This document shows, piece after piece, positions 20,604 to 52,712 of a stretch of DNA of 64,000 nt (the first letter of the stretch is position 1; each line of letters begins with the position of its first letter). The stretch lies in the NCBI GenBank assembly GCA_016235825.1, contig JACRIL010000102.1, forward strand, positions 751-64,750. The letters run 5' to 3'. The notes under the pieces are model-generated. The model was not told the origin of the DNA. It saw only the letters and a list, made by a program, of their open reading frames with translations, and searched no databases. This stretch comes from Planctomycetota bacterium (GTDB lineage Bacteria; Planctomycetota; Phycisphaerae; SM23-33). The translations under genes and the position numbers were made by a program.

Positions 20604-20643
20604 ACCAGTCACATATTTAGCACAAAATCAAGGGTGAGATATT

Positions 20644-20892: not shown

Positions 20893-20971
20893 TGCTTTTA
20901 CAAGTTAATGGATGCGAACTTTCTGGAGCCCTTTGGGCGATTGAAATGTATGGAAAGGAAAGGGATAAATA

Positions 20972-34602: not shown

Positions 34603-35334
34603 ATGAAAGACTGGAAACAGCGTTTGTATGACAATTACATCTCGACCGGGCAAGCCGGAACGGGTATCAATCGGCAGACCGGCCTGAATATCGGCGATTA
34701 TCCCTACTTTTCCAGACTCATCAGGAAACACCTGCCGGACAGGAAAGACATTGCCATTCTTGATTTGGCCTGCGGACATGGAGCATTGATATACTGCCTG
34801 AAGAAACTCGGTTATTGCAATCTTGAAGGAGTTGATATTTCACCGCAGCAGGTGGCTTTGGCGCATGAATCAGGGTTAAGAGAAATCAGATGCCAGGACA
34901 TGATGGATTTTCTGAAAGACAAAGTAAACGCTTTTGATGTCATCTTTTTGATGGACATTCTTGAACATTTGAGCAAAGTCGAGCTTTGCGATTGCCTGGA
35001 TCAAGTCAGTAAATCGCTGACAGCAAATGGAATGGTTGTAATACATGTTCCCAACGCGGAAGGAATATTCGGGATGAGGATCCGCTACGGGGATGTGACA
35101 CACGAGAACTGTTTCACCCCGCAGTCAATCAGACAGGCATTAAGAGTCTGCGGCATCCATAGCGTGGAATGTTTTGAAGACAAGCCCCTTATTCATGGTT
35201 TAAAAAGCTTATTCAGGTATATTTTATGGGTGCTGTTGACAGCGCCATTTCGCTTGTTGTTGGCTGCGGAGACTGGAACTACCGGGCAGGTTCTTTCCCA
35301 GAATATGTTGGTCGTTGCAAGGAAATTTGCCTGA
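34603..35334 (+). CDS. class I SAM-dependent methyltransferase (low-GC)
   Basis: Motif I ILDLACGHGALI and post-I FLMDILEHL. Confidence 0.8.
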   Translation: MKDWKQRLYDNYISTGQAGTGINRQTGLNIGDYPYFSRLIRKHLPDRKDIAILDLACGHGALIYCLKKLGYCNLEGVDISPQQVALAHESGLREIRCQDMMDFLKDKVNAFDVIFLMDILEHLSKVELCDCLDQVSKSLTANGMVVIHVPNAEGIFGMRIRYGDVTHENCFTPQSIRQALRVCGIHSVECFEDKPLIHGLKSLFRYILWVLLTAPFRLLLAAETGTTGQVLSQNMLVVARKFA

Positions 35335-35363
35335 CATGGCGGGAATACGGCAGAGACAAAAGC

Positions 35364-37268: not shown

Positions 37269-37284
37269 ACCGGACTGATTTTTT

Positions 37285-37372
37285 CGTGGCACGGGCATCT
37301 TGCCCGTGTGTTCCATGGGCGTCTCGCCCATGCACGTTCGCAGCTTCTCACGGCCGGGACGGCTGTGCCACG
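37285..37372. repeat. array of three 19-nt palindromic hairpins enclosed by CGTGGCA/TGCCACG
   Basis: CACGGGCA-TCT-TGCCCGTG (37290-37308), CATGGGCG-TCT-CGCCCATG (37314-37332) and CACGGCCG-GGA-CGGCTGTG (37349-37367). The array starts 17 nt after the asnB stop. Confidence 0.85.
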
Positions 37373-37389
37373 AATTTATTGGGGCGATA

Positions 37390-38634: not shown

Positions 38635-38735
38635 AGGCTGCACAAAACCCGCCGGAGCAGGCTTTTAATATTACGCCTGCGAAGTTGTAATTTTAATCTT
38701 TGTCATTTTTCTGCTGTTAAAATGATATGAAACAT

Positions 38736-38811
38736 CCCCCTGCTGGCGCAGGGGGCTTTATGATCGGTTCGCCGACGGATTTGTTTTAAAGCCCCGCATG
38801 TAAATGCGGGG
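38736..38811. repeat. family-2 hairpin pair (B then A module)
   Basis: CCCCCTGC-TGGC-GCAGGGGGCTTTATGA, then a 22-nt spacer with a CGG-TTCG-CCG mini-hairpin, then TTTTAAAGCCCCGCAT-GTAA-ATGCGGGGATGC. The same modules form the ends of the 61971-62370 foldback. Confidence 0.8.
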
Positions 38812-38857
38812 ATGCCGCGTTGAAATTCGAGAGTATGTTTCCAGCGGAGAAGAAATA

Positions 38858-41002
38858 ATGCCTGTCAACGTCTCTTCAAAACGGAGAATTTTCATACGCA
38901 TATTGGCGATACTGCTGATGCTGCTGGTTGGGTCGGCTTATTGTGAATTCGTCCGAAGTTATACCATGACACAGCCGATGCCGGACCTGGCGACCTACAG
39001 AGCGGTGATAGTTGCAACGACAGTCGCCGTTCTTTGCTTTGTAATATTCGTGGCACTTCTGGCGGCCCGGCTGATCCGCCCTGACCATCCGGCGGGCCGG
39101 AATTTTCCGCCCGAATTTTATGCCGCCCTGGAAAGCTCCGGGCATATCCTCTACAAGTACGACGTTCAGAAAAACCATTTTGAATATATCAGCCCGAACG
39201 TGCGGGAAATACTCGGCTTCGCCCCCGAATACTTCAACGGAAAATCTTTCGACGAACTGTCGCAGGGTATTCATCCGGAAGACAGGCTCATGCTTCAGAA
39301 GTTCCTGGAAGGGGGTGCCGCAGCGCATAAGGGCGGCGCGGCAACCGCGGCGGTCGAATACCGGCGAATGACCGCCGACGGGCGATATTGCTGGGTCGCG
39401 GATCGGTGCAATCTTCATTTCGACAATGCCGGCCGGCTGACCGCCATAGTCGGCTCGATGTATGACATAACCCGTCGCAAGGAAGACCAGTTGAAGATCG
39501 GCGAACTGCAGGGCCGCCACAGGGACCTTTTTGAGAGCATCGGCGACGCTATTTTCATCGGCGACGGCGGCGGGCGGTTCCTCGACGTGAATCCCGCCGC
39601 GTGCCGGCAGCTCGGCTGCGACAGGCGGGAATTGCTGAATATGGCGGTTCAGGACATTATTCCACCCCAGGAGATGGGCACGCTGGGCAGGACGATGGAT
39701 GCCGTGCTCAAAACGGGCAAGGCCGAACTGGAGTCGGTCCACGTCCGCAAGGACGGCGTCCGCGTCCCGGTCGAACTGCGGATCAGCCTGATCGATTACG
39801 CCGGCAAGCCCGCGTTTCTGGCCGTCGCCCGCGACATAACCGATCGCAGGGCGGCGCAGGAGGCGGTCAGGCAGAGCGAAGAAAGATACAGGCAACTGAT
39901 CGAGACCGCCTACGAGGGCGTGGCGGTGATAGGACAAGACAAATTCCTGTTCGCCAACGAAAGCACATCCAGAATTTCCGGCTACAGCGTGCAGGAACTC
40001 GCCGGCATGCACCCCATGGAAATAATTCATCCGGAAGACCGTGAAATGGTCCGCAAATATCATGATGACAGACTTGCGGGTCTGCCTGCCCCGTCGCGTT
40101 ATGAATTTCAGCTTGTGCGAAAGGACGGCCAGGTCGTTTGGGTCCACATTTCCGCGATAAAGATAAACTGGCAGGGCCAGCCCGCCTCGCTGGGACTGCT
40201 GCTGGACGTAACAGACCTCATAAACGCGCAGGACGCCCTCCAGAAGGGACAGGAATATCTCGAAAAGCGGGTCAAGGAAAGGACCGCCGAACTGGCCCGC
40301 GCCAACCGCGAATTGGAGGCCGAGATAGAGGAGCGGCGCAGGATGGAGCGGATACTGCAGGATGTCCGGCGCACGCTGCTCGTCGCGCGGGAAGACGAGC
40401 GCCGGCAGGTCGCCATGGACCTGCACGACTCGATCGGACAGAAGGTGATCGCCATGAATCTTTCGCTGCAATCCATTCTGGCCGGGAAAAGCAGCCTGGG
40501 CGACGGCCCGGTCGGCCGGACGCTTTCGGACCTGGCCGGAAACTGCACGTCGCTGATCCGCGAGATCAGGCAGATATCGCACGGGCTGTATCCGCCTACG
40601 CTCGAATCGCTGGGCCTGGCAAACGCCCTGGCGCAGATGATCCATGACGCCCAGGCGGCCGGCAGGATACGGCTGGACTGCCCGGGCGATCTCCAGCGGA
40701 TGCGGCTTGCGCCGCGGCAGGAAATTCAGCTTTTTCGCATAGCCCAGGAGGCCCTGGCCAACGCGCTCAAGCACAGCCAGGCCGGGCACGTTATCCTGAG
40801 CCTGGCCCGGAAGGACGACAGGATCATCCTGGCGGTGTCGGATGACGGAAAAGGTTTCGATCCCGGCGGCACGGCCGGCGGAATGGGCCTCAATACCATG
40901 CGCGACCGGGCGCAGAGCTGCGGCGGGGCGCTGCGGATCGACTCGACGCCGGGCCGGACGGTCATAGAGGCCGAGGTCCCGGCGAACGTCAGCGATTATT
41001 GA
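38858..41002 (+). CDS. membrane-anchored multi-PAS sensor histidine kinase (HisKA_3/NarX-LiaS type)
   Basis: N-terminal TM segments and about three PAS modules. H-box DLHDSIGQKVIAM. ATP-lid GGMGLNTMRDRA. GGAG SD before ATG 38858. No cognate regulator is adjacent. Confidence 0.8.
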   Translation: MPVNVSSKRRIFIRILAILLMLLVGSAYCEFVRSYTMTQPMPDLATYRAVIVATTVAVLCFVIFVALLAARLIRPDHPAGRNFPPEFYAALESSGHILYKYDVQKNHFEYISPNVREILGFAPEYFNGKSFDELSQGIHPEDRLMLQKFLEGGAAAHKGGAATAAVEYRRMTADGRYCWVADRCNLHFDNAGRLTAIVGSMYDITRRKEDQLKIGELQGRHRDLFESIGDAIFIGDGGGRFLDVNPAACRQLGCDRRELLNMAVQDIIPPQEMGTLGRTMDAVLKTGKAELESVHVRKDGVRVPVELRISLIDYAGKPAFLAVARDITDRRAAQEAVRQSEERYRQLIETAYEGVAVIGQDKFLFANESTSRISGYSVQELAGMHPMEIIHPEDREMVRKYHDDRLAGLPAPSRYEFQLVRKDGQVVWVHISAIKINWQGQPASLGLLLDVTDLINAQDALQKGQEYLEKRVKERTAELARANRELEAEIEERRRMERILQDVRRTLLVAREDERRQVAMDLHDSIGQKVIAMNLSLQSILAGKSSLGDGPVGRTLSDLAGNCTSLIREIRQISHGLYPPTLESLGLANALAQMIHDAQAAGRIRLDCPGDLQRMRLAPRQEIQLFRIAQEALANALKHSQAGHVILSLARKDDRIILAVSDDGKGFDPGGTAGGMGLNTMRDRAQSCGGALRIDSTPGRTVIEAEVPANVSDY

Positions 41003-42155
41003 AGAGCGACTCATACAGCCGCTCAATCCGCTCGACCATTACGCGCCAGTCGAAGATGGTCCGGCATTTTTCGCGGCCTGCGGCGCCGAGTTGCTGCCGC
41101 AGTTGCGGCGAGGCTGTGAGTTTCTCAATCGCCGCGGCCAGGCCCGCAACGTCGCGCGGGGCAAGCAGCACGCCCGTGGTCTCGTCGATTACTTCTCTCG
41201 CGCCGTCGACGTCAAAGCTGACGACCGGCCGGGCGGCGAGCATCGCCTGCGGTATCGCCCTTGCAAGACCCTCGCGGAGCGAGCAGTGGATAACGATATC
41301 GCTGGCGTGCATGACGGCCGGGATCAGGTCGGGCGCCAGCAGACCGGTCAGATGGAATCGGTCGGACAGGTCCGACCGGGCGATTGCGGCCTTTATCTGC
41401 CCGGCAAGCCAGCCGTCGCCGACAAAACAGAAATGCACCCGCCTGTCGGCGATCCGCCGGGCCGCCTCGAGGATGAAGTCGTGGCCTTTGAGTTCCGCAA
41501 GGCGCGAGACCTGCGCAATCAAAATGGCGTCTGCCGGCAGATTGAGCGACTCGCGGAACCTGTCCGCCCCGGCCGGCCGGATCATGTACGGCTCGACCTC
41601 CATCCCGCTGTAGATAGTCGTGTATTGCCGCCGCTGGCCCACGCCTGCCGCAAGGGCCTGATTCGTCATCGCGTCGGCCACGCTGATTATCGCGTCGCTT
41701 TGCCGGGCGGCGCGCCGTTCGAGCGCCGTGAATAAAAAATTGGCCAGCGGATTCTGATACGGATGAAACGCCAGGCCGTGGATTGTGTGAACGATCCGCA
41801 CCCGCGGACCGCCGGGCCTGCTCCGAACATCATGCGCCGCCTGCCTGCCCAAAATGCCCGCCTTCGACGAATGAGTGTGAATGATGTCCGGGCGAAGCTC
41901 GCCGATCAGCCTCGCCAGCGCCCGATACGCCGCAAGGTCCTCACCGGGCGAGATCTGCCTGACCAGCGGCGGCAGTTCGACGTACCGGTATCCGCCGCCG
42001 CGCGCCCGACCGACGAGCCTGCCCTCCGGCCCGACCGTAGGGCCGCTCACGAGAATAACCTCGTGCCCGCGTGCGCAGAGACCCTCACAGCTCAGGATCG
42101 TGTTTTCCTGAGCGCCGCCCACTATCAGCCGGGTTATCACGTGGCATATCCGCAT
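40989..42155 (-). CDS. glycosyltransferase family 4
   Basis: MRICHVITRLIVGGAQ N-terminus and CSLREGLARAIPQAMLAARPVV. The 3' end overlaps the kinase 3' end by 14 nt (convergent). Confidence 0.8.
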   Translation of the reverse strand: MRICHVITRLIVGGAQENTILSCEGLCARGHEVILVSGPTVGPEGRLVGRARGGGYRYVELPPLVRQISPGEDLAAYRALARLIGELRPDIIHTHSSKAGILGRQAAHDVRSRPGGPRVRIVHTIHGLAFHPYQNPLANFLFTALERRAARQSDAIISVADAMTNQALAAGVGQRRQYTTIYSGMEVEPYMIRPAGADRFRESLNLPADAILIAQVSRLAELKGHDFILEAARRIADRRVHFCFVGDGWLAGQIKAAIARSDLSDRFHLTGLLAPDLIPAVMHASDIVIHCSLREGLARAIPQAMLAARPVVSFDVDGAREVIDETTGVLLAPRDVAGLAAAIEKLTASPQLRQQLGAAGREKCRTIFDWRVMVERIERLYESLFNNR

Positions 42156-42353
42156 TGCAGCACATCGCCTGTCGGCGATAATTATTCTTCAGATCGGCTT
42201 GTTAAGCCAGAGTTTTTCTGTTTTGCCGGATCGCGGGTGTAAGAGCCTGTCCGAATAACTACGATGGACTGCGGGGCATTCTGTTCGGGACTCAAAATTT
42301 ATCAGGTAAAAGTTCTGCCTGCCGGTTTATTTTAAAATTTTTCCATTTTTCAG

Positions 42354-42382
42354 TTGACAATAATGTACGAACTGAACATAAT
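42354..42382 (+). promoter_or_regulatory. sigma70-like promoter TTGACA-17 nt-CATAAT, 8 nt before the deoR-family ATG
   Basis: TTGACA at 42354-42359, CATAAT at 42377-42382 and ATG at 42391. There is no SD. Confidence 0.5.
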
Positions 42383-42390
42383 ATAACATT

Positions 42391-43170
42391 ATGCCCAGAA
42401 GCGCCGCACAAGCCGTCGCCCGCCGCCGCGAGCTGGTGAATATACTGGCCCGCAGGCAGAGCCTCAGCATCGCCGATGCGGCGGGCCGTTTCGGCGTCAA
42501 CGGGATGACGATCCGGCGGGATATGAAGATGCTTCAGGACTCCGGCGCGGTCCTGCGCTGCTACGGCGGGGCGGTGGCGGCGCAGAGGATCACGTTTGAA
42601 TTCGCCTTCGACGAGCGGCGCCGCAGCCGGCTGGCCGAGAAACGGCGGATCGGCAGGGCGGCAGCCGGGCTGATCGGGGACGGTCAGACCGCTTTTCTCG
42701 ACACGGGCACGACGACGCTGGAGGTCGCGCGGGCCATCGTGGCGCGAGGCATCGCCTGCCGGATAGCGACTAGCAGCCTCGTAATCGCCAGTGAGCTGTG
42801 GGGGCGAGAGCAGATCGAACTGGTTCTTTTGGGCGGACAGGTGCGGCGGGGCAGCCCCGACCTGGTAGGCCCGGGCACGGAATTGATGCTGGACAAGCTG
42901 AGCGCCGATTTCGCCTTTTTGGGCAGCGAAGGCCTGGACGTGGCCCGCGGCAGCTTTGCAGACGATCCTCTGGCGGCGCAGGTGGCAGGCCACATGGCGG
43001 CCAATGCGAAGAAAACGGTCGTGGTCGCCGATCACTCCAAGCTTGGCAAGGTCGGCTCGGTGCAATACCTGCCGGTCGGCGACATGGATGTGCTGGTTAC
43101 CGATAAGGCAGCCCCGGCAGAGATCGTCGCGGCCCTGCGACGAAACAAAGTAAAGGTTGTCGTAGTTTAA
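42391..43170 (+). CDS. DeoR family transcriptional regulator
   Basis: N-terminal HTH RRRELVNILARRQSLSIADAAGRFGVNGMTIRRDMKML plus a C-terminal sugar-phosphate sensor domain. Confidence 0.85.
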   Translation: MPRSAAQAVARRRELVNILARRQSLSIADAAGRFGVNGMTIRRDMKMLQDSGAVLRCYGGAVAAQRITFEFAFDERRRSRLAEKRRIGRAAAGLIGDGQTAFLDTGTTTLEVARAIVARGIACRIATSSLVIASELWGREQIELVLLGGQVRRGSPDLVGPGTELMLDKLSADFAFLGSEGLDVARGSFADDPLAAQVAGHMAANAKKTVVVADHSKLGKVGSVQYLPVGDMDVLVTDKAAPAEIVAALRRNKVKVVVV

Positions 43171-43201
43171 AAATTCCAGTTTGACATATCAGGAGCCTTT
43201 T

Positions 43202-44011
43202 ATGGATGGACGCGAAATTAGGTTGAAGCGGCTGATGGGCAGCGGCAGAAGCGTTGTAATCGCCATCGACCACGGGCTTTTTGACGGGCCCATTGAGGCG
43301 ATGGAAGACCTGCCGGCGACCGCGGCGAAGATCAACCCAGTCGTAGACGCGGTGCTGCTGGCCCCGGGGATGCTGCGACACTGCTTCCCCGTCTTTGCCG
43401 ATCAGAAGCGGCCGCTTGCGGTTGTTCGGCTGAACTGGAACACCGTTTATTGCTTCCATTGGAAGTACACGCAGGCACACAGCGTCGAGGCGTACGGCGT
43501 CGAAGACGCCCTGCGGGAAGGCATGGACATAGCCCTGGTGTCGCTGACGCTGCAGACCGGCAGCGAGGATCGCGACGCGGCCAACGTGGAAATCTTCAGC
43601 CGGCTGACAAACCAGGCGCACAGGCTGGGCATCCCGGTCATAGGCGAGTATTTCCCCACGCGGCACGGCGAATTGTCACCTGAGCAACTGCACGAAAGCG
43701 TATTGGCCGGCAGCCGCATAGTGGCCGAACTGGGGGCAGACTCTATCAAGACATTCAACACGTGCAGATTTGCCGAGGTCGTGCGCGCCTGTCCGGTTCC
43801 GGTCCTGGGGCTGGGGGCGGAAAAGCTGCCGACGCCCAAGGCGGCTCTGGAACTGGCCGCCAGTGAAGTCGCTGCCGGCGCGGCCGGCGTGGTTTTCGGA
43901 CGCAACGCCATTCAGGTGGAAAATCCGTTCGCGTTTCAGGCCGCTTTATGCGACGTGGTAAGGAAAGGAGCGCAGGCAGATGAAGCCGTCCGCAAATACA
44001 ACATCGGCTGA
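43202..44011 (+). CDS. class I aldolase, DhnA/LsrF family
   Basis: ATG 6 nt after AGGAG. Motifs VVIAIDHG and GADSIKTFNT (Schiff-base Lys context). About 270 aa. Confidence 0.7.
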   Translation: MDGREIRLKRLMGSGRSVVIAIDHGLFDGPIEAMEDLPATAAKINPVVDAVLLAPGMLRHCFPVFADQKRPLAVVRLNWNTVYCFHWKYTQAHSVEAYGVEDALREGMDIALVSLTLQTGSEDRDAANVEIFSRLTNQAHRLGIPVIGEYFPTRHGELSPEQLHESVLAGSRIVAELGADSIKTFNTCRFAEVVRACPVPVLGLGAEKLPTPKAALELAASEVAAGAAGVVFGRNAIQVENPFAFQAALCDVVRKGAQADEAVRKYNIG

Positions 44012-45392
44012 GTATCTCGGTTTCGAGGACGTTGCCTACGATCGCGACTGGTGCCGCGCAGACCTGTCGCAGGTGCCCAATGTGATTGTCAAACCGCCCG
44101 GCCCCAAGAGCAAAAAGATGCACGACGCCACGAAACGCGTCTACAAGGGTCTTTCGGGGCAGGTCAAGTTGTTCCCGGTCTGCTTCAGCGAGGGCAAAGG
44201 CGTAACCCTGACCGACGTGGACGGCAACACATACCTGGATTTTTCCAGCGGCATCTACGTTACAACGCTGGGGCATTGCCATCCCAAGATCAGCGCCGCC
44301 GTCGCCCACTGGGCCGGCCGGCTGATGAACTGCCACGACTTCACCACGCCGGTCAAAGAGGCTCTCATGGCCAAGTTGGTCGATGTCATGCCGGGCGACC
44401 TCAACGGCGTGCAGCTTTACGACAGCGGGACTGTGGCGGTGGAGGCCGGGCTTCGCATCTGCCGGGCGGCGACGGGCAAAACGGAATTCCTCTCGTGCTT
44501 CATGGATTTCCACGGCAAGAGCCTGGGGGCGGTTTCCTGCGGCCGCATGAACGGCATGTACGCCTCGACCCGCATGCCGGGCTTTTACATGCTTCCGCGG
44601 CCGGACACCTACCGGCCGCTCTGGACGAGAGCCGACGGCACGCTCGACACCGAGGCATACCTGGAATTCTACGACAAGGCAATTGTGGATGGCACCACCG
44701 GCCAGGTCGCCGCGTTCGTGCTCGAGCCGATCCAAGGCTGGGGCGGCACGATCATCCCGCCGGACGATTTCTTCCCCAAGCTCCGGAAATTCTGCGACGA
44801 GCGAAAAATCCTGCTGATGGCCGACGAAGTTCTGACCGGCACCGGCCGCACCGGCCAGTGGCTGTGCATGCAGAATTGGAACGTCCTGCCGGACGTGGTT
44901 GCGCTGGGCAAGGGGTTCGGCAACGGCTTCCCGGTTACGGCGTGCATAGTCCGCGAAGGCATCAAGGAAAACTTCGAGAAGATCAGCGCATCGAGCAGTT
45001 ACGGCGGCAACCCGATGGCCTGCGCGGCGACCCTGGCGAGCCTTCAGGTGATCGAGGAGGAAAATCTGCTCGAAAACGCCCGCCACCTCGGCGCGATTGC
45101 CCTCAAACGCATGGAACAGATGAAGGCCCGGCACAAGATCATCGGCGACGTGCGGGCCAAAGGTTGCCTGATGGGGATCGAACTGGTCAAGGACCGCAAG
45201 ACCAAGGCGCCTTTCGACGAGGCCGGCAGAATGGTTTACGCCAAGGCATTCGAGAGAGGCCTGGCGTGGATACCGGCCGGCCACATATTGAGGCTCAGCC
45301 CTCCGATCATCATGAACGATGACGAACTGCTCAAAGGCCTGAACATCATCGACGAGGCGATAGGCGAGACGGAAAAGGAGATGGGATACTGA
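43980..45392 (+). CDS. class III (acetylornithine/GABA-type) aminotransferase
   Basis: LLMADEVLTGTGRTG and LGKGFGNGFP (PLP Lys). AAGGAG SD. Confidence 0.8.
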   Translation: MKPSANTTSAEYLGFEDVAYDRDWCRADLSQVPNVIVKPPGPKSKKMHDATKRVYKGLSGQVKLFPVCFSEGKGVTLTDVDGNTYLDFSSGIYVTTLGHCHPKISAAVAHWAGRLMNCHDFTTPVKEALMAKLVDVMPGDLNGVQLYDSGTVAVEAGLRICRAATGKTEFLSCFMDFHGKSLGAVSCGRMNGMYASTRMPGFYMLPRPDTYRPLWTRADGTLDTEAYLEFYDKAIVDGTTGQVAAFVLEPIQGWGGTIIPPDDFFPKLRKFCDERKILLMADEVLTGTGRTGQWLCMQNWNVLPDVVALGKGFGNGFPVTACIVREGIKENFEKISASSSYGGNPMACAATLASLQVIEEENLLENARHLGAIALKRMEQMKARHKIIGDVRAKGCLMGIELVKDRKTKAPFDEAGRMVYAKAFERGLAWIPAGHILRLSPPIIMNDDELLKGLNIIDEAIGETEKEMGY

Positions 45393-46534
45393 TGAGGACC
45401 GTCCGCTTTGGAATAATCGGCTGCGGTCTGATGGGGCGAGAGTTCGCCAGTGCCGCCGCCCGCTGGTGCCACCTGCCGGAGATGAAGGTCCGGCCCCAGA
45501 TCGTCGCCGTCTGTGACGCCAAACCCGAGCCGATGGAATGGTTCAGTCAAAATTTTCCGTCCATAAAACTGGCGACGACCGACTACCGGCAGATACTGGC
45601 CGATGAGTCCGTGGAGGCGGTGTACTGCGCCGTGCCGCACAACCAGCACAAGGATGTTTACTGCGACATCCTCGCGGCCGGCAAGCATCTCATGGGCGAA
45701 AAGCCCTTTGGCATCGACAAGCTCGCCAACGACGCGATCAACGCAGCCATAGCCGCGCATCCCGGCCTGCTGGTGCGGTGCAGCAGCGAGTTCCCGTTTT
45801 TTCCCGGCGCCCAGCGGATCGCCAGGATGCTGGATGCCGGGGCGTTCGGAAAGATAATTGAAGTCGCCGGCGGCCTGCTCCACTCGTCGGACCTGGACCT
45901 CGACAAGCCCATCAACTGGAAGCGGATGATCGAGTTCAACGGCGAATACGGATGCATGGGCGACCTGGGGATGCACGCCTGCCATTTTCCATTCAGGGCC
46001 GGCTTCATTCCTCGCAACGTCCGGGCCATCCTCAGCAAGATCGTAACCGAGCGCCCGGACGGCAAGGGCGGGCGCGCGGCCTGCCTGACGTGGGACAACG
46101 CCACGCTTTTCTGCGAGGCCGCCGAAAGCCCGGACGCCGACGGATTCCCGCTTGCGCTCAAGACGCACCGGATTGCGCCGGGCGAGACAGACACGTGGTA
46201 CATTGAAATCCTGGGCGCGAAGATGTCGGCGAGGTTCTCGACCAAGAATCCGCGCCGGCTGGAGGTGATGGAATACCGCAACGGCGTGCAGGCCTGGCAG
46301 CAGATAGACACCGGGCAGGACACGGCCTTCAAGACCATCACCGGCTCGATCTTCGAGTTCGGATTCTCCGACGCGATACTCCAGATGTGGGCGGCGTTCC
46401 TGCACGAGCTGGCCGAAGGCAGACCGGCGGGGCGTTTCGCCGGATGCGCCACGCCGCAGGAGGCGGCGCTGAGCCACAGGCTCTTTACCGCCGCCCTGGA
46501 ATCGCATAAAAATCACGCGACGGTTGCGTTATAA
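45392..46534 (+). CDS. Gfo/Idh/MocA family oxidoreductase
   Basis: MRTVRFGIIGCGLMGREF and HLMGEKPF. The start overlaps the upstream stop (TGATG). Confidence 0.8.
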   Translation: MRTVRFGIIGCGLMGREFASAAARWCHLPEMKVRPQIVAVCDAKPEPMEWFSQNFPSIKLATTDYRQILADESVEAVYCAVPHNQHKDVYCDILAAGKHLMGEKPFGIDKLANDAINAAIAAHPGLLVRCSSEFPFFPGAQRIARMLDAGAFGKIIEVAGGLLHSSDLDLDKPINWKRMIEFNGEYGCMGDLGMHACHFPFRAGFIPRNVRAILSKIVTERPDGKGGRAACLTWDNATLFCEAAESPDADGFPLALKTHRIAPGETDTWYIEILGAKMSARFSTKNPRRLEVMEYRNGVQAWQQIDTGQDTAFKTITGSIFEFGFSDAILQMWAAFLHELAEGRPAGRFAGCATPQEAALSHRLFTAALESHKNHATVAL

Positions 46535-46544
46535 AGGATGGCAA

Positions 46545-47951
46545 ATGGCGGAACGACGACCACGAGTTGGATTGCTAGGCCTGATGCTGGAACTTTACGA
46601 CACGCTTGCGCCGCAGTTGCGTGCAGATCGCGAGAACTGGGTCCGCGCAAGCCTGCTGCCGGCGCTGGCGCCCGCGGCCGACGTGGAATTCCGTAGGGCC
46701 GTGGCGTCGGCAGCCGACATCCGCGCGGAGATCGGCCATTTCGTCGAGGCAAAGGTTGACGCGGTTCTTGTGGTCTGCCTGTCGTATTCACCCAGCCTGA
46801 ACACGGCCGAGCCGCTGGCCCGCTGCGGCCTGCCGGTGATCGTCTGGAATACCCAGGAACTCTGGGCCGTGGATGAAAACTACGGCCCGGCGGAGCTTAC
46901 GGCCAATCACGGCGTGCACGGCACGCAGGACCTCTGCAGCGTGCTGACGCGGATGGGCGCGGCGTTTGAATATGTAACCAGCCATGTCCGCGACGGCCGG
47001 GCTACGTCGGAACTGGGCCGATTCTTCAACGCCGCTGCGGCAGCGACCGATCTACGTCGGTTGCGAGTGGGGCTGCTTGGGTACGCATTCCCCGGCATGG
47101 GCGATTTCGCCATCGAGCCTTCGCGATTCACAGCAACGCTGGGGCCGACAGTCTGCCCGCTGACGGTCGATGAATACATCCGCCGAGCCGCCTCGGCCGC
47201 CGAGTCGGATGTGCAGGCCATGGTCGACGACTACCGCCGCAGTTACGACCTTGCCGTCGATCTGGCGCCGGCCGATCTGGATGCTACTGCGCGGGCCGAG
47301 CTCGCCCTGCGGGGCATGGTCGCCGACAACAAACTGGACGCGATTACTTACCAATTCCTGGCTTTCGGCGAAGACGAACGGACCGAGACCGTCCCGTTCG
47401 TCGCCGCCAGCCGAATGATGAGCGAGGGCGTTGGCTTCGGCGGAGAGGGCGACGTCATCGGGGCCGCCGGGGCGTGGCTGCTGCACCGGCTCTGCCCGCC
47501 CGCCACGTTCAGCGAGATATTCACCATCGACTTCGCCGGCAACAGCCTGCTGATGAGCCACATGGGCGAGGCCAACGTCGCCATGATTGAACAGGGGCGC
47601 AAGGCGAACATGGTCGCCCGGCCGTCGCCGATTACGCGGACCCGCAAGCGGCAACTGGCGCTGCGGTGGAGTTTCCGGCCCGGCCCGGCGACCCTGTTTG
47701 CATTGGTTCAGGGGCCGGGCGGGCGATGGCGATTCATCGTCAGCAAAGTTGGCATCGTGCCTTTTGAGCCTCGGCCGACGCTGGCCGTGCCGCAGTTCAA
47801 GATATTGCCGGCACCCGGCGACGTGCGCGGCTGGCTGACCCGCTATGCAAAGGCTGGCGGACCACACCACAACGCCGTCTGTCTCGGCGACGCACGCGAG
47901 CAACTCCTCGCCGTCGCGAGGCTCGTCGGCGCAGAACTGGTCGAGGTATAA
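46545..47951 (+). CDS. L-arabinose isomerase (AraA) family protein
   Basis: GVGFGGEGDVIGAAG compares with the AraA GYGFAGEGDWKTAAL. LMSHMGE compares with LGSHMLE, so the metal ligands are retained. AAGGA SD. Confidence 0.65.
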   Translation: MAERRPRVGLLGLMLELYDTLAPQLRADRENWVRASLLPALAPAADVEFRRAVASAADIRAEIGHFVEAKVDAVLVVCLSYSPSLNTAEPLARCGLPVIVWNTQELWAVDENYGPAELTANHGVHGTQDLCSVLTRMGAAFEYVTSHVRDGRATSELGRFFNAAAAATDLRRLRVGLLGYAFPGMGDFAIEPSRFTATLGPTVCPLTVDEYIRRAASAAESDVQAMVDDYRRSYDLAVDLAPADLDATARAELALRGMVADNKLDAITYQFLAFGEDERTETVPFVAASRMMSEGVGFGGEGDVIGAAGAWLLHRLCPPATFSEIFTIDFAGNSLLMSHMGEANVAMIEQGRKANMVARPSPITRTRKRQLALRWSFRPGPATLFALVQGPGGRWRFIVSKVGIVPFEPRPTLAVPQFKILPAPGDVRGWLTRYAKAGGPHHNAVCLGDAREQLLAVARLVGAELVEV

Positions 47952-47954
47952 CGC

Positions 47955-50489
47955 ATGTATCTTGGCCTGGACCTGGGAACCACCAATATCAAGGCCCTGC
48001 TTGTGGATACGGGCGGCAAGGTGGCGGCGTCTTCGTCTGTCACCGTCGGCCTGAAAAACGGGCCCAACGGCGCGGTTGAGCAGGATATCGGGGAAATCCG
48101 GGCCGCGGTGCTGAAGGCTATTTGTTCGCTTGGCGATAAGGATCGGCTCGCCGCGGTTCGCGAGATCGGTGTTTCCAGCCAGGGCGGCTCGCTTCAGATA
48201 ACGGGTGCCAATGGAGCACCCATCGGCCCGGTGATCAGTTGGCTGGACGGCAGGGGGCAGCCTTATGACGAGGCCTTCAACATGGAACTGGGCCGCGAGT
48301 GGTTTGCCCGGCACGTCGGCCACGGCGGCAGCGACGTGGCGGTGGGCCAGTTGCTTCGGCTGCGGAAAGAGCGGCCGGAATTGCTCGCCAGGCCAAATCG
48401 GGTGGGCTTCGTCGGCGATTTTATTGTGGCGAGTCTGTGCGGTCGGGCCGCGCACGATGCCTCATCTCTGTCGATTGCCACGCTGCTTAACCCGCAATTG
48501 CGGGCTGCCGACCCGGATCTGTTGAAAAAACTGAAACTCGACGGGGATCAGTTGCCGGCGCTGTTGTCGCCGCGAGAATGCGCCAGCGTGCTCAGCGCCG
48601 AAGTCGCCCGCCAAACGCACCTGCCCGCCGGTACGCCGGTCTCGGCGGCGGTCCACGATCAATATGCCGCGGCCTTAGGTTCAGCGGCGGTCCACGCGGG
48701 CGACGTGATGGTCGGGACCGGGACCGCGTGGGTTCTGCTGGCGGTTACGGACCGGCTGATGCCGCCGGTGCTCGATTCGGCGTTTGTCTCACCCCATCCG
48801 GCCGAAGGCCTGTACGGACAGCTTGCCTCGCTGGGCAACGGCGGGGCCGCCTTGAGCTGGCTGGTGAAAATTTTAGAGTTGGACGAGACCGTTCCCGGCG
48901 CAATTGAAAATATGCTAAAAGCCGCGCCCGCTGGTTGCGACGGCCTGCGGTGCCGGCCGTTTCTGGCCTATTATCAGCCGGCCGGCCTGCCTGCGAACGT
49001 GAACGGCTGTTTCACCGGCCTCAAACTGTTCCACACGCGGGCGCATCTGGTCCGCGCAGTGGTGGAAGGCCTCGCGTGCGAGTTGGCACGGCATCTGCGT
49101 TTGCTGAACGCCGCCGGCCTGGAAACCCGCCGCCTGATCCTGTGCGGCGAGGCGGCCGCAGGCGAAGAGACCCCGCAAACAATCGCTGACATAACCGGCT
49201 TGCCGGTGGCGTGCGCGGCGGTGCGACAGACCAGCGCGTTCGGCGCCGCGGTGATCGCCCGGGGCCTGGCCGAACATTCCGAAAGCCTGGTTCAACTGGC
49301 CGAATCGATGGCATCGTCCCGCCGCATCTTTACGCCGGGCGACAATGCGGCTCGCTATCGGCAGATTATGGCCGAATACATTGCGTCTCTGCCTGCCGAA
49401 AAAGCGACGGAACCAGCGGCATCGGCCGGGCGCGTCCATCTGCATCACGTCTTCGACTACACCGACGTGGACCGTGCATTCTGGGCCGAGCATCTTGAGG
49501 ATTGGCTGCCGAAAAAGATCATCGACGTGCATATGCACGTCAGCGATCCGGCAAACAGGCGTGAGCCGATGACCGAAGAGGGACGTCGTCAGTATTGGGT
49601 GTCGGAGGTCTTGGAACCGATGGACGTTCGCAGCGCGGACCGCTGCCTGGCGACTGTTTTTCCCGGCCGGCAGGTCGAGTGTGTGGCGATGAGCATGCCC
49701 AGTCTGGAATTCGACATCGAGGCCGAGAATGAGTACGTCCGGACAAGCTGCCTGGAACGCGACTGGCATGGCCTGCTTATGCTTCGGCCGCAGATGAAGG
49801 CAGCCGACCTCGATGCCGCACTTGGCAAACCGGGAATCATCGGAGTAAAGCCATACTACACGCTTATCAGCCGCAATCCGCTCACCCGCGACGAGCACAT
49901 CGAGGCAAGCATCTTCGACTTTCTGCCACACCATGTCCTGGAAGTCCTCAACGCCCGCCGCGCATGGGTTACGCTGCACGTGCCCAAGGCCGGCCGGCTG
50001 GGCCACCCGGACAACATCCGCGAAATAAAGGAAATCCGCCGCAGGTATCCCCGCGTGATCCTGGTCGTCGCGCACCTGGGCCGCTGCTACACCGAGCCGC
50101 ACGCGCAGGAGGCCCTGCCGCTTCTGGCGGATGATCCGGGTCTTTACTTCGACAACTCGGCCGTGCTCAACCCCGCCGTCCATCGCCTGGCCCTGAAATG
50201 CCTCGGGCCGGACCGCATCCTTTACGGCAGTGACAATCCGGTGTTTTTCATGCGAGGCCGGAGGCAGTGGCAGGGAAAAACCTACATCAATCGGACCAAC
50301 TACCCGTTTTTCTTCAACAAGCGGCGGGAGCCTCCCGAGATCGAGGCCGGCTACACGCTTTATATGTATGAAGCGCTGCTCGCCGTCAAAATCGCCTGCC
50401 GCGACGCGGGGTTGACGGGCGATCAGGTGAATGCCATCTTCCACGACAACGCCGAGCGGCTTATCCGGCCCGCAAATAAAGGCGGGTGA
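47955..50489 (+). CDS. fusion protein: FGGY-family carbohydrate kinase (N) + amidohydrolase-2-type metal hydrolase (C)
   Basis: N-terminal MYLGLDLGTTNIKALLVD and VMVGTGTAWV (FGGY). From about residue 500: IIDVHMHVSDP (HxH), VVAHLGRCY and ILYGSDNPV (amidohydrolase-2 pattern). A single uninterrupted 844-aa frame. Confidence 0.75.
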   Translation: MYLGLDLGTTNIKALLVDTGGKVAASSSVTVGLKNGPNGAVEQDIGEIRAAVLKAICSLGDKDRLAAVREIGVSSQGGSLQITGANGAPIGPVISWLDGRGQPYDEAFNMELGREWFARHVGHGGSDVAVGQLLRLRKERPELLARPNRVGFVGDFIVASLCGRAAHDASSLSIATLLNPQLRAADPDLLKKLKLDGDQLPALLSPRECASVLSAEVARQTHLPAGTPVSAAVHDQYAAALGSAAVHAGDVMVGTGTAWVLLAVTDRLMPPVLDSAFVSPHPAEGLYGQLASLGNGGAALSWLVKILELDETVPGAIENMLKAAPAGCDGLRCRPFLAYYQPAGLPANVNGCFTGLKLFHTRAHLVRAVVEGLACELARHLRLLNAAGLETRRLILCGEAAAGEETPQTIADITGLPVACAAVRQTSAFGAAVIARGLAEHSESLVQLAESMASSRRIFTPGDNAARYRQIMAEYIASLPAEKATEPAASAGRVHLHHVFDYTDVDRAFWAEHLEDWLPKKIIDVHMHVSDPANRREPMTEEGRRQYWVSEVLEPMDVRSADRCLATVFPGRQVECVAMSMPSLEFDIEAENEYVRTSCLERDWHGLLMLRPQMKAADLDAALGKPGIIGVKPYYTLISRNPLTRDEHIEASIFDFLPHHVLEVLNARRAWVTLHVPKAGRLGHPDNIREIKEIRRRYPRVILVVAHLGRCYTEPHAQEALPLLADDPGLYFDNSAVLNPAVHRLALKCLGPDRILYGSDNPVFFMRGRRQWQGKTYINRTNYPFFFNKRREPPEIEAGYTLYMYEALLAVKIACRDAGLTGDQVNAIFHDNAERLIRPANKGG

Positions 50490-50507
50490 GGCCTCATCAC
50501 GGCGAGT

Positions 50508-50858
50508 TCAGTGCCTGGCGGAATTCGGGAGATTCATCTGGAGCGTCGCCAGGGCGGTGGCCATGTCGTCGGTGTGCTCGAAGAGCTTGTCCAGGCCCAT
50601 GACCATGAAAACGCCCCAGACCTGCGGGTCGACGTCGCAGATCACTATCCGGCGTTTATGCTCGATGGCGATTTTCCTGAGCCTCAGCAGGCGAGCGGCG
50701 TTGGCCGAGTTGACGAACCCCACGGCCGAAAAATTCAGGACCAGATGTTTGGGCTGCTCGCGCAGCCGGACCATCACCGAGGCCAGTTCGTCCGTGAACA
50801 AAGGGTCCTCGGCAAGTTCAACAACCATAATCTCGTTCGACCAGTCCTGGATAGACAT
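50508..50858 (-). CDS. STAS-domain anti-sigma-factor antagonist
   Basis: VVELAEDP...LVLNFSAVGFVNSANAARLLRL...VWGVFMVMGLDKLF. Confidence 0.75.
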   Translation of the reverse strand: MSIQDWSNEIMVVELAEDPLFTDELASVMVRLREQPKHLVLNFSAVGFVNSANAARLLRLRKIAIEHKRRIVICDVDPQVWGVFMVMGLDKLFEHTDDMATALATLQMNLPNSARH

Positions 50859-51040
50859 AATTATTTCCTTGTCCGGATGCAGTTAAACAAAAAAAACCAA
50901 AAAGGTCAAGGCCGGCGCCGCGGAAAGCCGGTTTTTGCCGAAATTCTCCGGGATGCGTCTGCGCCGGAGGAAAGGGCCAGTGACGGAGATAAAACGCATT
51001 GTCAGGATTCCCCGCCGCAAGTATCATAAGGAACATGGGC

Positions 51041-52060
51041 ATGAAACGAGCGGCAGGCATGGGGTTCTTCTGCGGATTACTGGCGGCGGTCTGCGGCTGC
51101 GGGCCGGAGCAGTGGCCGGCCAGCGGCCCGGCGGCACGCGGTCCGGAGGCGTTGCCGCCCGTGCAGTCGCGTCCGGCGCTGACGGCCGAGATGCTGAGGA
51201 TGCATCGCAGGCCGTGGGACGCCGAGACCTGGGGGCCTCAGCCGGAGCAGCCGGGCGATGCCGCAGAAGACTATGTCAAGGCCATGGCCGAATACAATCG
51301 CAACGCCAAGTCGATACACGACGGGATAGACGCGGCCAAAGACCCGGCCAAACTGGACGCCGCCGTGGTCGGCCTGCTCAAGGGAGTGCAGACGCACATC
51401 GCCGCGGCGACGCAGAAAAAAGAGATGCGTTTCACCTTCGTTTACACACCAAAAAGTTTCGAGGTCAGCCCGGAATATGCGCCCATAAAAGAACTGGACG
51501 ACGACCTGATGCGCCTGCTTTATGTGCTGGCTGTGTACCACGTCGCCAAGGGCGAATTCCCCGCCGCCCAGGAGGCCATGAAACAGATGTATACATTCTA
51601 CTGGCACAGCGCACAGGACGGCTCTCGCGTAACCATGGTGGTCGGCGGGGAAAAACTTGGCCTTTGGGCCACCTATCTGCTGGCCAAGGAAGTCTTCGCC
51701 AGATGGGACGAGCAACATGTCCGGCAGGCCGGCCGGATAAATGAAAAACTCAAGCAGCAGGTTCAGGCCGGCGACGACAAGTTTCAGCGGGTCTGGGGGC
51801 CAAATCCCTCGCCGGCGGACATCTTCGCCATCATCGCCTACGACGAGGACCGCGCCTGGCGGATCGACGCCATCCTGGCCCTGGGAATGCTGAAATTCAG
51901 CCACGCATCCGACGGGCAGGTGGCCATGAAGGTCGCCGATCTGATCGAGCGGTATTCGGTGAGCGAAGATCCGCTGGAGTCCGCCGCCGCGAAGGCCGCG
52001 AAAGAATTCACGCGGGAGCAGTTCGATAAAATTCAGGCCGCCCCGGCCGGCAGAAAATAA
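51041..52060 (+). CDS. hypothetical lipoprotein
   Basis: MKRAAGMGFFCGLLAAVCGC lipobox. The remainder is helical with no recognised family. Confidence 0.5.
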   Translation: MKRAAGMGFFCGLLAAVCGCGPEQWPASGPAARGPEALPPVQSRPALTAEMLRMHRRPWDAETWGPQPEQPGDAAEDYVKAMAEYNRNAKSIHDGIDAAKDPAKLDAAVVGLLKGVQTHIAAATQKKEMRFTFVYTPKSFEVSPEYAPIKELDDDLMRLLYVLAVYHVAKGEFPAAQEAMKQMYTFYWHSAQDGSRVTMVVGGEKLGLWATYLLAKEVFARWDEQHVRQAGRINEKLKQQVQAGDDKFQRVWGPNPSPADIFAIIAYDEDRAWRIDAILALGMLKFSHASDGQVAMKVADLIERYSVSEDPLESAAAKAAKEFTREQFDKIQAAPAGRK

Positions 52061-52079
52061 CCCCCTGCCGGCGCCGATC

Positions 52080-52310
52080 TCAGGCGATGATGTTCTGCAG
52101 GCCGAAGTGGGTGTCGGATTTTTTCTTGTTGCCGTCGAAGACGCCAGGCGGCGGGGTCTTCATGCCGCCATGCTCGCCCGACTCGCCGGATATGATGTTG
52201 AAAGGACGGAGCTTGAAAATCCTCTCGCAGCCGGGACACATCAATTTTTTGCCGACGGCGTCCGGCTTAGCCCGCAACACCTTCCTGCAATACGGACATG
52301 CGATCTTCAT
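52080..52310 (-). CDS. small zinc-ribbon protein
   Basis: CPYC...16 aa...CPGC in the first 30 residues. Confidence 0.5.
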   Translation of the reverse strand: MKIACPYCRKVLRAKPDAVGKKLMCPGCERIFKLRPFNIISGESGEHGGMKTPPPGVFDGNKKKSDTHFGLQNIIA

Positions 52311-52712
52311 CGTTTAAGCTCCCAAACTGTTGGACAAGCCGCTCATTTGACCACAGGTAGAAATGCCAAACCTGACAGTACGGCAAAAACCTTAACGTCC
52401 TCTTCAAGCCGATGGTCCCTCCCGACCATCATGCTGTACAATGTTATTATAGCATCGTTTTTTTACCTTGCAAGGCTTCAGGAAAAAAATCCTGAATTTG
52501 CCGGTTTTCCGATTTGGCGTCGCGACGATTTCGCATCTAACCATATTATACGATGTGAGTTATGGTTATAATATTTGATTTATACCGTGAACGGAATGCG
52601 GCATGGAAATTCGCAGGAACTTTGTTATTGTAATGATCGGTTAAAAAAGAAACATTTTTGCCCGGCGAACGTTATAAAATAGAAGAGACCCCTTACATAG
52701 ACAGGTTCGCGA

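Follow-up and report, generated by a model that had tools for sequence, protein, structure and literature searches.

Which compound would a bacterium process with a sugar isomerase, a sugar kinase and an aldolase that are encoded in one unit with an aminotransferase and an oxidoreductase? This question is raised by a six-gene cluster, headed by a DeoR-family regulator gene, at positions 42391–50489 on the forward strand of a 64-kb stretch of DNA from a Planctomycetota bacterium of the class Phycisphaerae (assembly GCA_016235825.1, contig JACRIL010000102.1, positions 751–64,750; G+C content ~61 %), hereinafter the window. We argue that the cluster is very probably a catabolic sugar operon; that it encodes an undescribed route in which an amino sugar, possibly N-acylated, loses its nitrogen by transamination is a model to which we would give an even chance. 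The building blocks of such a route, namely the isomerase-kinase-aldolase logic, dehydrogenase/aminotransferase pairs and DeoR control, are known, whereas the curated models and the literature that we searched contain neither the combination nor the kinase-linked step catalyzed by an Amidohydro_2 family protein nor a transaminase-based loss of sugar nitrogen in catabolism. A preliminary description, made from the nucleotide sequence alone, was unable to match the cluster to a described pathway, and this holds: all six proteins miss all NCBIfam equivalog cut-offs, and full-text literature searches for such enzyme combinations found no description, the part of the search concerning SftI returning mostly an unrelated peptide that shares this name.

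Organization and predicted regulation of the operon

All six open reading frames (ORFs) lie on the forward strand at the positions given in the preliminary description, their family assignments are borne out by Pfam, and the G+C content of their third codon positions (0.74–0.83) is of the coding type. In order, the genes encode a 259-aa DeoR/GlpR-family transcriptional repressor (deoR, 42391–43170); a class I aldolase of the DhnA/LsrF/MJ0400 type (43181–44011); a 470-aa class III pyridoxal phosphate (PLP)-dependent aminotransferase, denoted ATa (43980–45392); a 380-aa, cytoplasmic Gfo/Idh/MocA-family NAD(P) oxidoreductase, denoted GFOa (45392–46534); an AraA-like aldose-ketose isomerase (46524–47951); and a single 844-aa protein (47955–50489) in which an FGGY sugar kinase domain (47955–49382) is fused to a metal-dependent TIM-barrel domain of the Amidohydro_2 family (49431–50489). 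The junctions are tight, with overlaps or gaps of 3–32 nt across the cluster: ATa begins at an ATG (43980) that follows an AGGAG and shares 32 nt with the aldolase gene, the ATa stop codon overlaps the GFOa start codon within TGATG (45390–45394), and 3 nt separate the isomerase stop codon from the kinase ATG. The aldolase and isomerase ORFs, in their longest form, open with TTG (43181 and 46524, respectively), and the true starts of both are probably located further downstream. For the aldolase, the ATG at 43202, with AGGAG 6 nt upstream, yields a 269-aa protein that matches its homologs and leaves a gap of 31 nt after deoR; for the isomerase, the ATG at 46545 yields the 468 aa of NCBI protein P0241 and begins 10 nt past the GFOa stop codon, as opposed to an 11-nt overlap from the TTG. 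The cluster is flanked by two unrelated genes, a divergent GT4 glycosyltransferase upstream and a convergent STAS-domain gene downstream, and terminator-like hairpins within it are not more frequent than in shuffled sequence. Because the overlaps and gaps are this short and a single strong promoter-like site with an operator precedes deoR, we consider the six genes to form one operon-like unit, as had been proposed.

The promoter-like site is of the sigma-70 type (TTGACA-17 nt-CATAAT, 42354–42382, forward strand), agrees with the consensus at 11 of 12 positions, and is the best of four such sites in the region 42000–51000, where shuffled sequences lead one to expect 1.9. Its −10 hexamer ends 8 nt ahead of the deoR ATG, and an imperfect inverted repeat, ATGTAC-N5-GAACAT (42363–42379, forward strand), is located between the −35 and −10 hexamers. 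This repeat is probably the operator through which DeoR controls its own gene. The DeoR protein contains the HTH_DeoR (2.2e-13) and DeoRC (1.5e-43) domains, and its best NCBIfam matches are GlpR and AgaR, both under cut-off. The same promoter layout was detected upstream of the orthologous deoR genes in six related loci (L031, L032, L047, L053, L075 and L076; the related loci are introduced below): TTGACA is followed by TGTTCG-N5-CGAACA running into the −10 hexamer (CATAAT, except for CACAAT in L032), then by exactly 8 nt and the ATG. Conservation of this layout, including the 8-nt spacing, suggests that the gene is autoregulated and that the operon begins with a deoR transcript that is probably leaderless, both in the window and in these Planctomycetes. 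A motif search for further copies of the operator in the window, for instance next to a transporter gene, yielded only the promoter of the operon itself as a convincing site; the one other match with a single mismatch, at 7756, lies within a coding start and is probably due to chance. When the other loci were searched for exact matches, the motif was found only in L053 and L076. A search for the inducer could start directly from the conserved promoter and operator.

The encoded enzymes

The isomerase contains the AraA_central and Arabinose_Iso_C domains, and its residues E308, E331, H346 and H448 (numbering of the 475-aa ORF) align with the metal ligands of solved L-arabinose isomerases (in FGGEGD, E, HM and HH), so that the earlier observation of retained ligands stands for all four. 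However, the protein is not an equivalog of AraA (101.3 bits against a cut-off of 622, NF002795) or of SftI (43.9 against 700, NF048012). A search at E ≤ 1e-10 retrieved 1076 relatives, and the best 120 of these bear only family-level names, such as "hypothetical protein," "L-arabinose isomerase" and "L-fucose/L-arabinose isomerase family protein."

The kinase domain matches FGGY_N (3e-33) and FGGY_C (2e-17); its nearest NCBIfam model is XylB (TIGR01312; 201.8 bits, cut-off 380), and it scores far lower with LsrK (NF008187; 88.2, cut-off 528) and with the ribulokinase models (58–64 bits, cut-offs 428–583). The fused domain belongs to the Amidohydro_2 family (PF04909), has the TIM-barrel fold with an invariant HxH/H/H/D metal site, and is distinguished by an additional β-hairpin with an invariant GRRQW motif (the RGRR residues are invariant). 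It also contains many invariant arginines, which would fit an anionic, for example phosphorylated, substrate. Comparison with the sequences in the PDB gave nothing better than E = 0.07, and a fold search placed the domain at the family level only, without separating lactonases, decarboxylases and hydratases; the top structural match is L-fucono-1,5-lactonase (4dlf), with LigI lactonases also ranking high. The fusion with the kinase is rare but recurrent. An assembly artefact can be rejected as its source given that nine independent protein clusters, at 45–62 % identity, carry it.

The aldolase, described from the start as a class I enzyme of the DhnA/LsrF type, indeed matches the DeoC/LacD family (PF01791; 8.9e-15, 55.4 bits against a gathering cut-off of 23.8), and its closest solved structures are MJ0400 (1.9e-26) and LsrF (5.5e-23). 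The Schiff-base lysine of its GADSIKT motif aligns with the lysine of GADIVKT in MJ0400 and of GAQIIKT in LsrF, and the DHG and GRN motifs, which cover phosphate binding, are likewise conserved in the alignment. None of the specific models is reached: the ADH-synthase subfamily PRK07226 scores 149 bits (cut-off 241), LsrF (NF006081) 129.1 (297), ADH synthase (TIGR01949) 123.9 (299.45) and archaeal class I fructose-bisphosphate aldolase (NF040816) 104 (430); there is also a weak match to BagB/FevI.

ATa is a member of the Aminotran_3 family (PF00202; 6.5e-97, 325 bits), with the PLP-binding lysine K311, in ALGKG, invariant throughout the ATa alignment (A3). The class III subfamilies considered for it, GabT, ArgD, BioA, PbfA, the racemases and others, include none whose equivalog cut-off is reached: the best match is PRK05769 (358 bits against 552), and the best 25 of 69 matches are all below cut-off. 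The nearest solved enzymes are archaeal alanine/serine racemase, isoleucine 2-epimerase, dialkylglycine decarboxylase and γ-aminobutyrate aminotransferase. GFOa matches PF01408 (GFO_IDH_MocA; 1.8e-14, 54.9 bits) and contains a GCGLMG Rossmann motif and a GEKP (EKP) motif. Among solved proteins it comes closest, at E of about 1e-16, to levoglucosan dehydrogenase (6a3f) and scyllo-inositol/L-glucose dehydrogenase (5ya8), and it falls under the cut-offs for levoglucosan dehydrogenase, its best NCBIfam match (70.6 against 650), inositol 2-dehydrogenase (48.7 against 355) and UDP-N-acetylglucosamine 3-dehydrogenase (49.1 against 450). The window encodes a second class III aminotransferase (22081–23409, forward strand), 28 % identical to ATa; it is preceded by a pair of genes for a xylose-isomerase-like TIM barrel and a Gfo/Idh/MocA protein (18572–20603, forward strand), from which it is separated by an insert of low G+C content (20603–22081, 0.49).

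Conservation of the gene cluster in other genomes

To examine the genomic neighborhoods of the isomerase, we scanned one genome per species of the Genome Taxonomy Database (GTDB), and mapped the gene content of the relatives by tblastn with the window proteins combined with gene calls weighted by G+C content at third codon positions. Altogether, 142 species encode a relative of the isomerase; the best 80 are all metagenome-assembled genomes, nearly all of them labeled as Planctomycetota (Pirellulales, Thermoguttaceae, Phycisphaerae, "Brocadiia") or Verrucomicrobiota. In the 38 well-flanked loci, those with at least 7 kb on either side of the isomerase gene, the isomerase is 52–61 % identical to the window protein, and it is followed by the kinase (43–58 % identity) and the Amidohydro_2 protein (54–69 %) in 33 loci, in this order. 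Class III aminotransferases are encoded in at least 20 of the 38 loci, a Na+/solute symporter of the SGLT/YidK type (PRK10484, 316 bits) in 21, GFOa orthologs in 18, aldolase orthologs in 14 and DeoR in 13. The isomerase-kinase-aldolase logic seen by the preliminary description is present in the window, but the conserved core is isomerase-kinase-Amidohydro_2, with the aldolase found in 14 of the 38 loci; in many Planctomycetes, aldolase orthologs with 65–76 % identity are located directly upstream of the isomerase. The cluster itself contains no transporter, as had been noted, and tblastn with the symporter of the related loci detected none of this type in the entire 64-kb window.

The aminotransferases of the isomerase clusters belong to three lineages, ATa, ATb and a 510-aa type, with mutual identities of 22–29 %; the presence of such divergent lineages in the same kind of cluster suggests that the amino-transfer step is required by the pathway. 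A GFO gene is located within 6 kb of 40 of the 43 aminotransferase genes near the isomerase, and 19 of these pairs are directly adjacent. Gene order differs between clusters. Besides the arrangement of the window, two further types were seen. The Verrucomicrobiota arrangement is symporter-ATb-isomerase-kinase-Amidohydro_2-GFOa; in Pirellulales, GFOa, ATa, the symporter and DeoR on one strand diverge from aldolase-isomerase-kinase-Amidohydro_2; and in L018, L019, L031 and L036 the order is isomerase-kinase-Amidohydro_2-ATa-GFOa.

The second anchor was ATa, the alignment of which was used to scan metagenomes. At least 586 relatives were detected, the best 80 with 62–71 % identity. Here DeoR-ATa-GFOa forms a near-constant unit, with a GFO gene directly downstream of ATa in 29 of the 53 sufficiently long loci and within 5 kb in 37, which supports the earlier view of aminotransferase and oxidoreductase as a pair. 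The partners of the unit differ: they are (i) the isomerase-kinase-Amidohydro_2 set of the window; (ii) NagA together with a divergent NagB-like protein, an amidase of the ceramidase type, a further FGGY kinase and, in some loci, a symporter; (iii) an isomerase resembling FucI/SftI, along with a kinase of the PfkB or FGGY family; or (iv) a DhnA-type aldolase paralog accompanied by a FucI-like isomerase, an FGGY kinase and a ceramidase-like amidase. Amidases of the creatininase family and Amidohydro_2 paralogs are also found among the partners. The NagA of set (ii), which adjoins ATa orthologs together with the NagB-like protein in L105, L108, L113, L130, L136, L154 and L163, reaches the equivalog cut-off (228.7 against 225.65 bits), whereas the NagB-like protein scores 56.6 bits against 236.9; the FucI-like isomerases score 54–76 bits with the SftI model.

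Chance grouping can be excluded because the families recur together, in shuffled order, in about 85 isomerase-anchored and 80 ATa-anchored loci of other organisms. The combination of shuffled order, retained content and recruitment of non-orthologous aminotransferases is strong evidence that the genes work as one functional unit.

Several variants of these clusters are worth recording. In one clade of Verrucomicrobiota (L089:401–13694, also L013, L038, L056 and L078), an apparent 11-gene same-strand unit has genes for DeoR, a PD40 β-propeller, a small protein, an MBOAT protein and an AlgX-like acyltransferase ahead of the symporter, odd company for a catabolic operon. A GFO-GNAT fusion with a C-terminal acetyltransferase domain is encoded right after the Amidohydro_2/aminotransferase genes in L033 (13958–15616), L031, L057, L062 and L075. 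The two oxidoreductase genes of the otherwise window-like cluster L001 are separated by a nucleotidyltransferase/HepT-like toxin-antitoxin pair (4724–5403), and a glycoside hydrolase of family GH95 adjoins L085, an observation from a single clade. Paralogous modules, in which an aldolase and a kinase-Amidohydro_2 fusion occur without the AraA-like isomerase, or aldolase, isomerase and kinase are represented by paralogs with 22–43 % identity (L002:9184–14182, L036:16584–21383, L062:11653–14083), suggest a family of related pathways for different substrates. Finally, genes for URO-D/MtaA-like (methylcobamide methyltransferase-like) proteins recur at loci of both anchor types (L005:1259–2461, L003:3997–7351, L099, L107, L120, L167) and may demethylate a methylated sugar or amine.

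A proposed route for amino-sugar catabolism

Three features of the clusters, namely the association with NagA/NagB-like genes, the symporter of the relatives and the DeoR repressor, point to the catabolism of nitrogen-bearing sugars. The occurrence of ATa orthologs, at 62–71 % identity, next to NagA and NagB-like genes provides independent support for the part of the preliminary description that invoked amino sugars. A placement of the aminotransferase at the beginning, on the free sugar, fares less well: identity of ATa between cluster types (65–70 %) is nearly as high as within types (67–75 %), which suggests that ATa has a single class of substrate, a shared intermediate, possibly phosphorylated, that arises once the isomerases and kinases, which differ between clusters, have acted. 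This placement agrees with the gene order isomerase-kinase-Amidohydro_2-ATa-GFOa mentioned above, and the constant ATa-GFOa pair fits a conversion of an amino group to a keto group and then to a hydroxyl.

Under the amino-sugar model, the operon would be repressed by DeoR and serve the breakdown of an amino-substituted, possibly N-acylated aldose, the uptake of which would be encoded elsewhere (in relatives, by the SGLT/YidK-type Na+ symporter). The AraA-like enzyme would isomerize the aldose to the 2-ketose; an isomerase of this type needs a free 2-hydroxyl, and therefore the nitrogen of the window-type substrate is expected at a carbon other than C2. The FGGY domain would then phosphorylate the ketose, and the Amidohydro_2 domain would carry out a metal-dependent step on the phosphorylated intermediate. 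Our favored guess for this step is removal of an N-acyl group, by analogy with the order from NagK to NagA and with the amidases of the sister clusters; epimerization or isomerization is the alternative, and a lactonase function is a further possibility. ATa would pass the amino group on to a 2-oxo acid, and GFOa would reduce the carbonyl of the keto-sugar phosphate formed in this way to a hydroxyl. The class I aldolase, through its lysine Schiff base, would split the resulting ketose phosphate into dihydroxyacetone phosphate (DHAP), or a DHAP-like half, and an aldehyde. For the many relatives that dispense with the aldolase, one may suppose either a gene at another site or a product that is already a central metabolite. 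Finally, a pathway intermediate would release DeoR from the ATGTAC-N5-GAACAT operator that overlaps its own promoter.

The proposed route resembles several known systems without coinciding with any of them. The catabolism of arabinose (AraA/AraB/AraD), fucose (FucI/FucK/FucA) and rhamnose (RhaA/RhaB/RhaD) likewise proceeds from a metal-dependent isomerase of the AraA/FucI superfamily to an FGGY kinase and then to a third enzyme, the substrate of which is the ketose phosphate. In the window, however, the isomerase is not an AraA ortholog, the kinase is nearest to XylB, under cut-off, the third position is occupied by an Amidohydro_2 protein rather than by an enzyme of the class II aldolase fold (AraD, FucA, RhaD), the aldolase is a class I, DhnA-type enzyme, and an aminotransferase/oxidoreductase pair is integrated; no gene of the AraD-like class II aldolase fold was found in the window or the related loci. 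The catabolism of N-acetylglucosamine and N-acetylgalactosamine (NagK/AgaK, NagA/AgaA, NagB/AgaS, AgaR) shares with the window a kinase followed by an enzyme of the amidohydrolase superfamily, removal of nitrogen, and a DeoR-family repressor. NagA, NagB and AgaS are absent from the window, where nitrogen would leave by PLP-dependent transamination and keto-reduction instead of an isomerizing deamination at C2, where the hydrolase is Amidohydro_2 and not Amidohydro_1, and where an isomerase for a 2-hydroxy aldose is present. From the Amidohydro_2 proteins of COG3618 and COG2159 (L-fucono-1,5-lactonase BmulJ_04915, LigI, ACMSD, IDCase, LigW and LigJ), to which it is only 13–21 % identical, the domain differs in its additional β-hairpin and in being fused to, or following, a sugar kinase.

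Several observations weigh against the amino-sugar model. About one third of the well-flanked loci lack an aminotransferase within 7–10 kb, and 12 of the 38 lack both aminotransferase and aldolase; the isomerase-kinase-Amidohydro_2 core may then, by itself, serve a neutral sugar. The Verrucomicrobiota clusters are devoid of the aldolase, and only about half of the 39 ATa-anchored loci of at least 9 kb carry an amidase of any fold. No glycoside hydrolase, sulfatase or other gene that would reveal the substrate recurs beside the cluster. The acetyltransferase domain of the GFO-GNAT fusion in some relatives is unexpected in a deacylating route. Among solved proteins, those nearest to ATa use amino acids, not sugars; the nearest folds to the Amidohydro_2 domain are those of lactonases, decarboxylases and a hydratase; and this family has no known N-deacylase.

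Alternative readings

The least unlikely of the alternatives is a route for a neutral sugar, similar to those for fucose, rhamnose and arabinose. Here the sugar would be degraded by the isomerase, the kinase, the class I aldolase and the Amidohydro_2 protein, the last as an epimerase or a metal-dependent aldolase, and GFOa and ATa would process the aldehyde co-product by reduction, oxidation or amination. The core without an aminotransferase, and with GFOa alone in several Verrucomicrobiota loci, is what such a route would predict, as is the near-invariance of ATa across cluster types if the enzyme acts on one common small product; the use of small amino acids or ω-amines by the nearest solved relatives of ATa is in line with this. 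We nevertheless consider this route unlikely: amination of an aldehyde is an unusual catabolic fate, the aminotransferase is present in many clusters without an aldolase (those of Verrucomicrobiota and the NagA/NagB and FucI-like/PfkB types), and its company with NagA and NagB-like genes points to nitrogen borne by the sugar.

The structural similarity of the Amidohydro_2 domain to L-fucono-1,5-lactonase 4dlf and the LigI lactonases, together with the distant relationship of GFOa to L-glucose 1-dehydrogenase and the proximity of ATa to enzymes that use α-amino acids, brings up an oxidative route: GFOa would oxidize C1 of an aldosamine to the lactone, the Amidohydro_2 lactonase would open it to a 2-amino-2-deoxy-aldonate, ATa would yield the 2-keto-aldonate, and kinase and aldolase would complete the pathway. 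This scheme, which appears less probable still, leaves no role for the AraA-like isomerase, the most conserved partner, and produces a 2-keto-aldonate that does not suit a DhnA-type aldolase. Furthermore, the similarity to lactonases is only 18 % identity for 4dlf and is matched equally well by decarboxylases and a hydratase; identity to the COG3618 sugar lactonases is 16–18 %, and, although a GFO gene is often nearby, the constant neighbor of the Amidohydro_2 domain is the kinase, which it always follows or is fused to, and in Planctomycetes it is not consistently located beside GFOa.

Could the cluster work in the biosynthetic direction? Pairs of a dehydrogenase and an aminotransferase are typical of amino-sugar biosynthesis, as in NtdC/NtdA and KabC/KabA (kanosamine), WbpB/WbpE and GnnA/GnnB, with AcbV and GabT1 as class III precedents, and they share with the window pair a Gfo/Idh/MocA protein and a PLP-dependent aminotransferase that interconvert hydroxyl, keto and amino groups; the window genes are adjacent and translationally coupled. 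An amino- or imino-sugar cluster in which the aldolase condenses DHAP with an aldehyde, GFOa oxidizes and ATa aminates the product, comparable to the kanosamine, GriI/GriH and deoxynojirimycin routes, would also agree with the biosynthetic function of other DhnA-type aldolases (ADH synthase, GriI/BagB), with the weak BagB/FevI match and with the GFO-GNAT fusion of some relatives. Yet the known pairs have nucleotide sugars or sugar phosphates as substrates, and their aminotransferases are mostly of the DegT type (class V-like), whereas the window enzyme belongs to class III and its context, with a repressor, a kinase, an aldolase and the symporter of the relatives, is catabolic; hence the direction proposed in the amino-sugar model is the reverse of that of the biosynthetic pairs. 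Given that a DeoR/GlpR-type repressor heads the operon, that SGLT-type uptake symporters belong to the related clusters, that ATa is tied to NagA/NagB-like catabolic genes, and that the recurrent neighbors include no exporter, phosphatase, glycosyltransferase or nucleotidyltransferase, biosynthesis is improbable.

Even less can be said for processing of a phospho-diketone as in the Lsr system for autoinducer-2 (LsrK, LsrG and the thiolase LsrF), an alternative raised in the preliminary description, under which the FGGY kinase would phosphorylate a compound similar to 4,5-dihydroxypentane-2,3-dione, or the Amidohydro_2 protein would dehydrate a pentulose phosphate, and the LsrF-like enzyme would, with coenzyme A, form DHAP and acetyl-CoA. 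The pairing of an FGGY kinase with a Schiff-base enzyme of the DhnA/LsrF family and one step in between is indeed that of LsrK and LsrF, the aldolase is about equally close to LsrF and MJ0400, and Amidohydro_2 could replace the LsrG isomerase. However, both proteins remain below the Lsr cut-offs (88 against 528 bits for LsrK, 129 against 297 for LsrF), LsrG, LsrR, LsrACDB and LsrE were not found in the window or in any related locus, the aldolase is absent from most relatives, and the additional isomerase, aminotransferase and oxidoreductase would be left unexplained.

Sulfoglycolysis, the substrate of which is a 6-substituted hexose, invites comparison through its isomerase, kinase, class I aldolase, oxidoreductase and DeoR-family regulator in the sulfo-Embden-Meyerhof-Parnas pathway (YihS/YihV/YihT/YihU with CsqR, where YihT belongs to PF01791 and CsqR to the DeoR family) and through the SftI sulfo-transketolase variant. 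We reject sulfoquinovose as the substrate: the sole link is the very weak SftI match, sulfoglycolysis involves no aminotransferase or Amidohydro_2 enzyme, unlike the window, and no sulfoquinovosidase, sulfonate exporter or sulfolactaldehyde enzyme was found in any locus examined. The aminocyclitols suggested earlier as an alternative to amino sugars are likewise rejected as substrates because the core includes an aldose isomerase and no iol or moc genes are present.

Other features of the window

Immediately upstream of the operon (35226–42155), what looks to be an unrelated cluster of envelope or exopolysaccharide genes encodes an asparagine synthase, two GT4 glycosyltransferases and a histidine kinase with multiple PAS domains. 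At the start of the window, a gene for a RuBisCO large-subunit-like protein (304–1695, reverse strand), possibly a RuBisCO-like protein with a part in sugar or sulfur salvage, overlaps a gene for a xylose-isomerase-like TIM barrel (1649–2695, reverse strand), and this pair is adjoined by an AnmK-like anhydro-N-acetylmuramic acid kinase gene (2840–4030, forward strand). A 544-aa protein encoded at 54980–56614 (reverse strand) combines an MtrA-like domain (tetrahydromethanopterin S-methyltransferase subunit A) with the pterin-binding DUF4346. With regard to noncoding RNAs, the window contains a 6S RNA (13878–14028, forward strand; 49 bits) and a divergent pair of Acido-Lenti-1 small RNA motifs about 100 nt apart (32212–32257, reverse strand, and 32356–32401, forward strand); no tRNA genes were found in the 64 kb. 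Against a genomic G+C content of about 0.61, four patches stand out at 0.48–0.51 (4030–5686, 10362–12274, 20603–22081 and 52060–52713); possibly of foreign origin, they hold a HEAT-repeat-like ORF, a putative lipoprotein gene and a small ORF for a phage-like DNA-binding protein.

Implications for Planctomycetota and Verrucomicrobiota

Going one step beyond the amino-sugar model itself, we tentatively suggest, as a possibility still short of an even chance, that Planctomycetota, Verrucomicrobiota and their relatives possess an undescribed transaminase-dependent catabolism of amino sugars in which the nitrogen is not at C2. Candidate substrates would be 3-, 4- or 6-amino-deoxy sugars and diamino sugars from lipopolysaccharide, S-layer glycans or aminoglycosides. 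Interchangeable front ends, namely the AraA-like isomerase with the FGGY kinase, NagA with the NagB-like protein, or a FucI-like isomerase with a PfkB kinase, would deliver a shared amino-ketose phosphate, which ATa and GFOa would turn into an ordinary ketose phosphate. The kinase-linked Amidohydro_2 protein would then represent a new N-deacylase or epimerase of sugar phosphates, without known precedent in its family.

Soils and sediments contain much organic nitrogen and carbon in the form of amino sugars, and the bacterial routes known to us handle only 2-amino sugars, by way of NagA/NagB-type enzymes. If the proposal is correct, a transaminase/reductase route would explain the use of other amino sugars by Planctomycetota and Verrucomicrobiota, which are abundant but mostly uncultured. 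It would also extend the Amidohydro_2 family by a new type of reaction, provide enzymes useful for making or modifying amino sugars, and assign functions to several protein families, each with about 1000 or more detected relatives, that are now labeled "hypothetical," "L-arabinose isomerase" or "amidohydrolase family protein."

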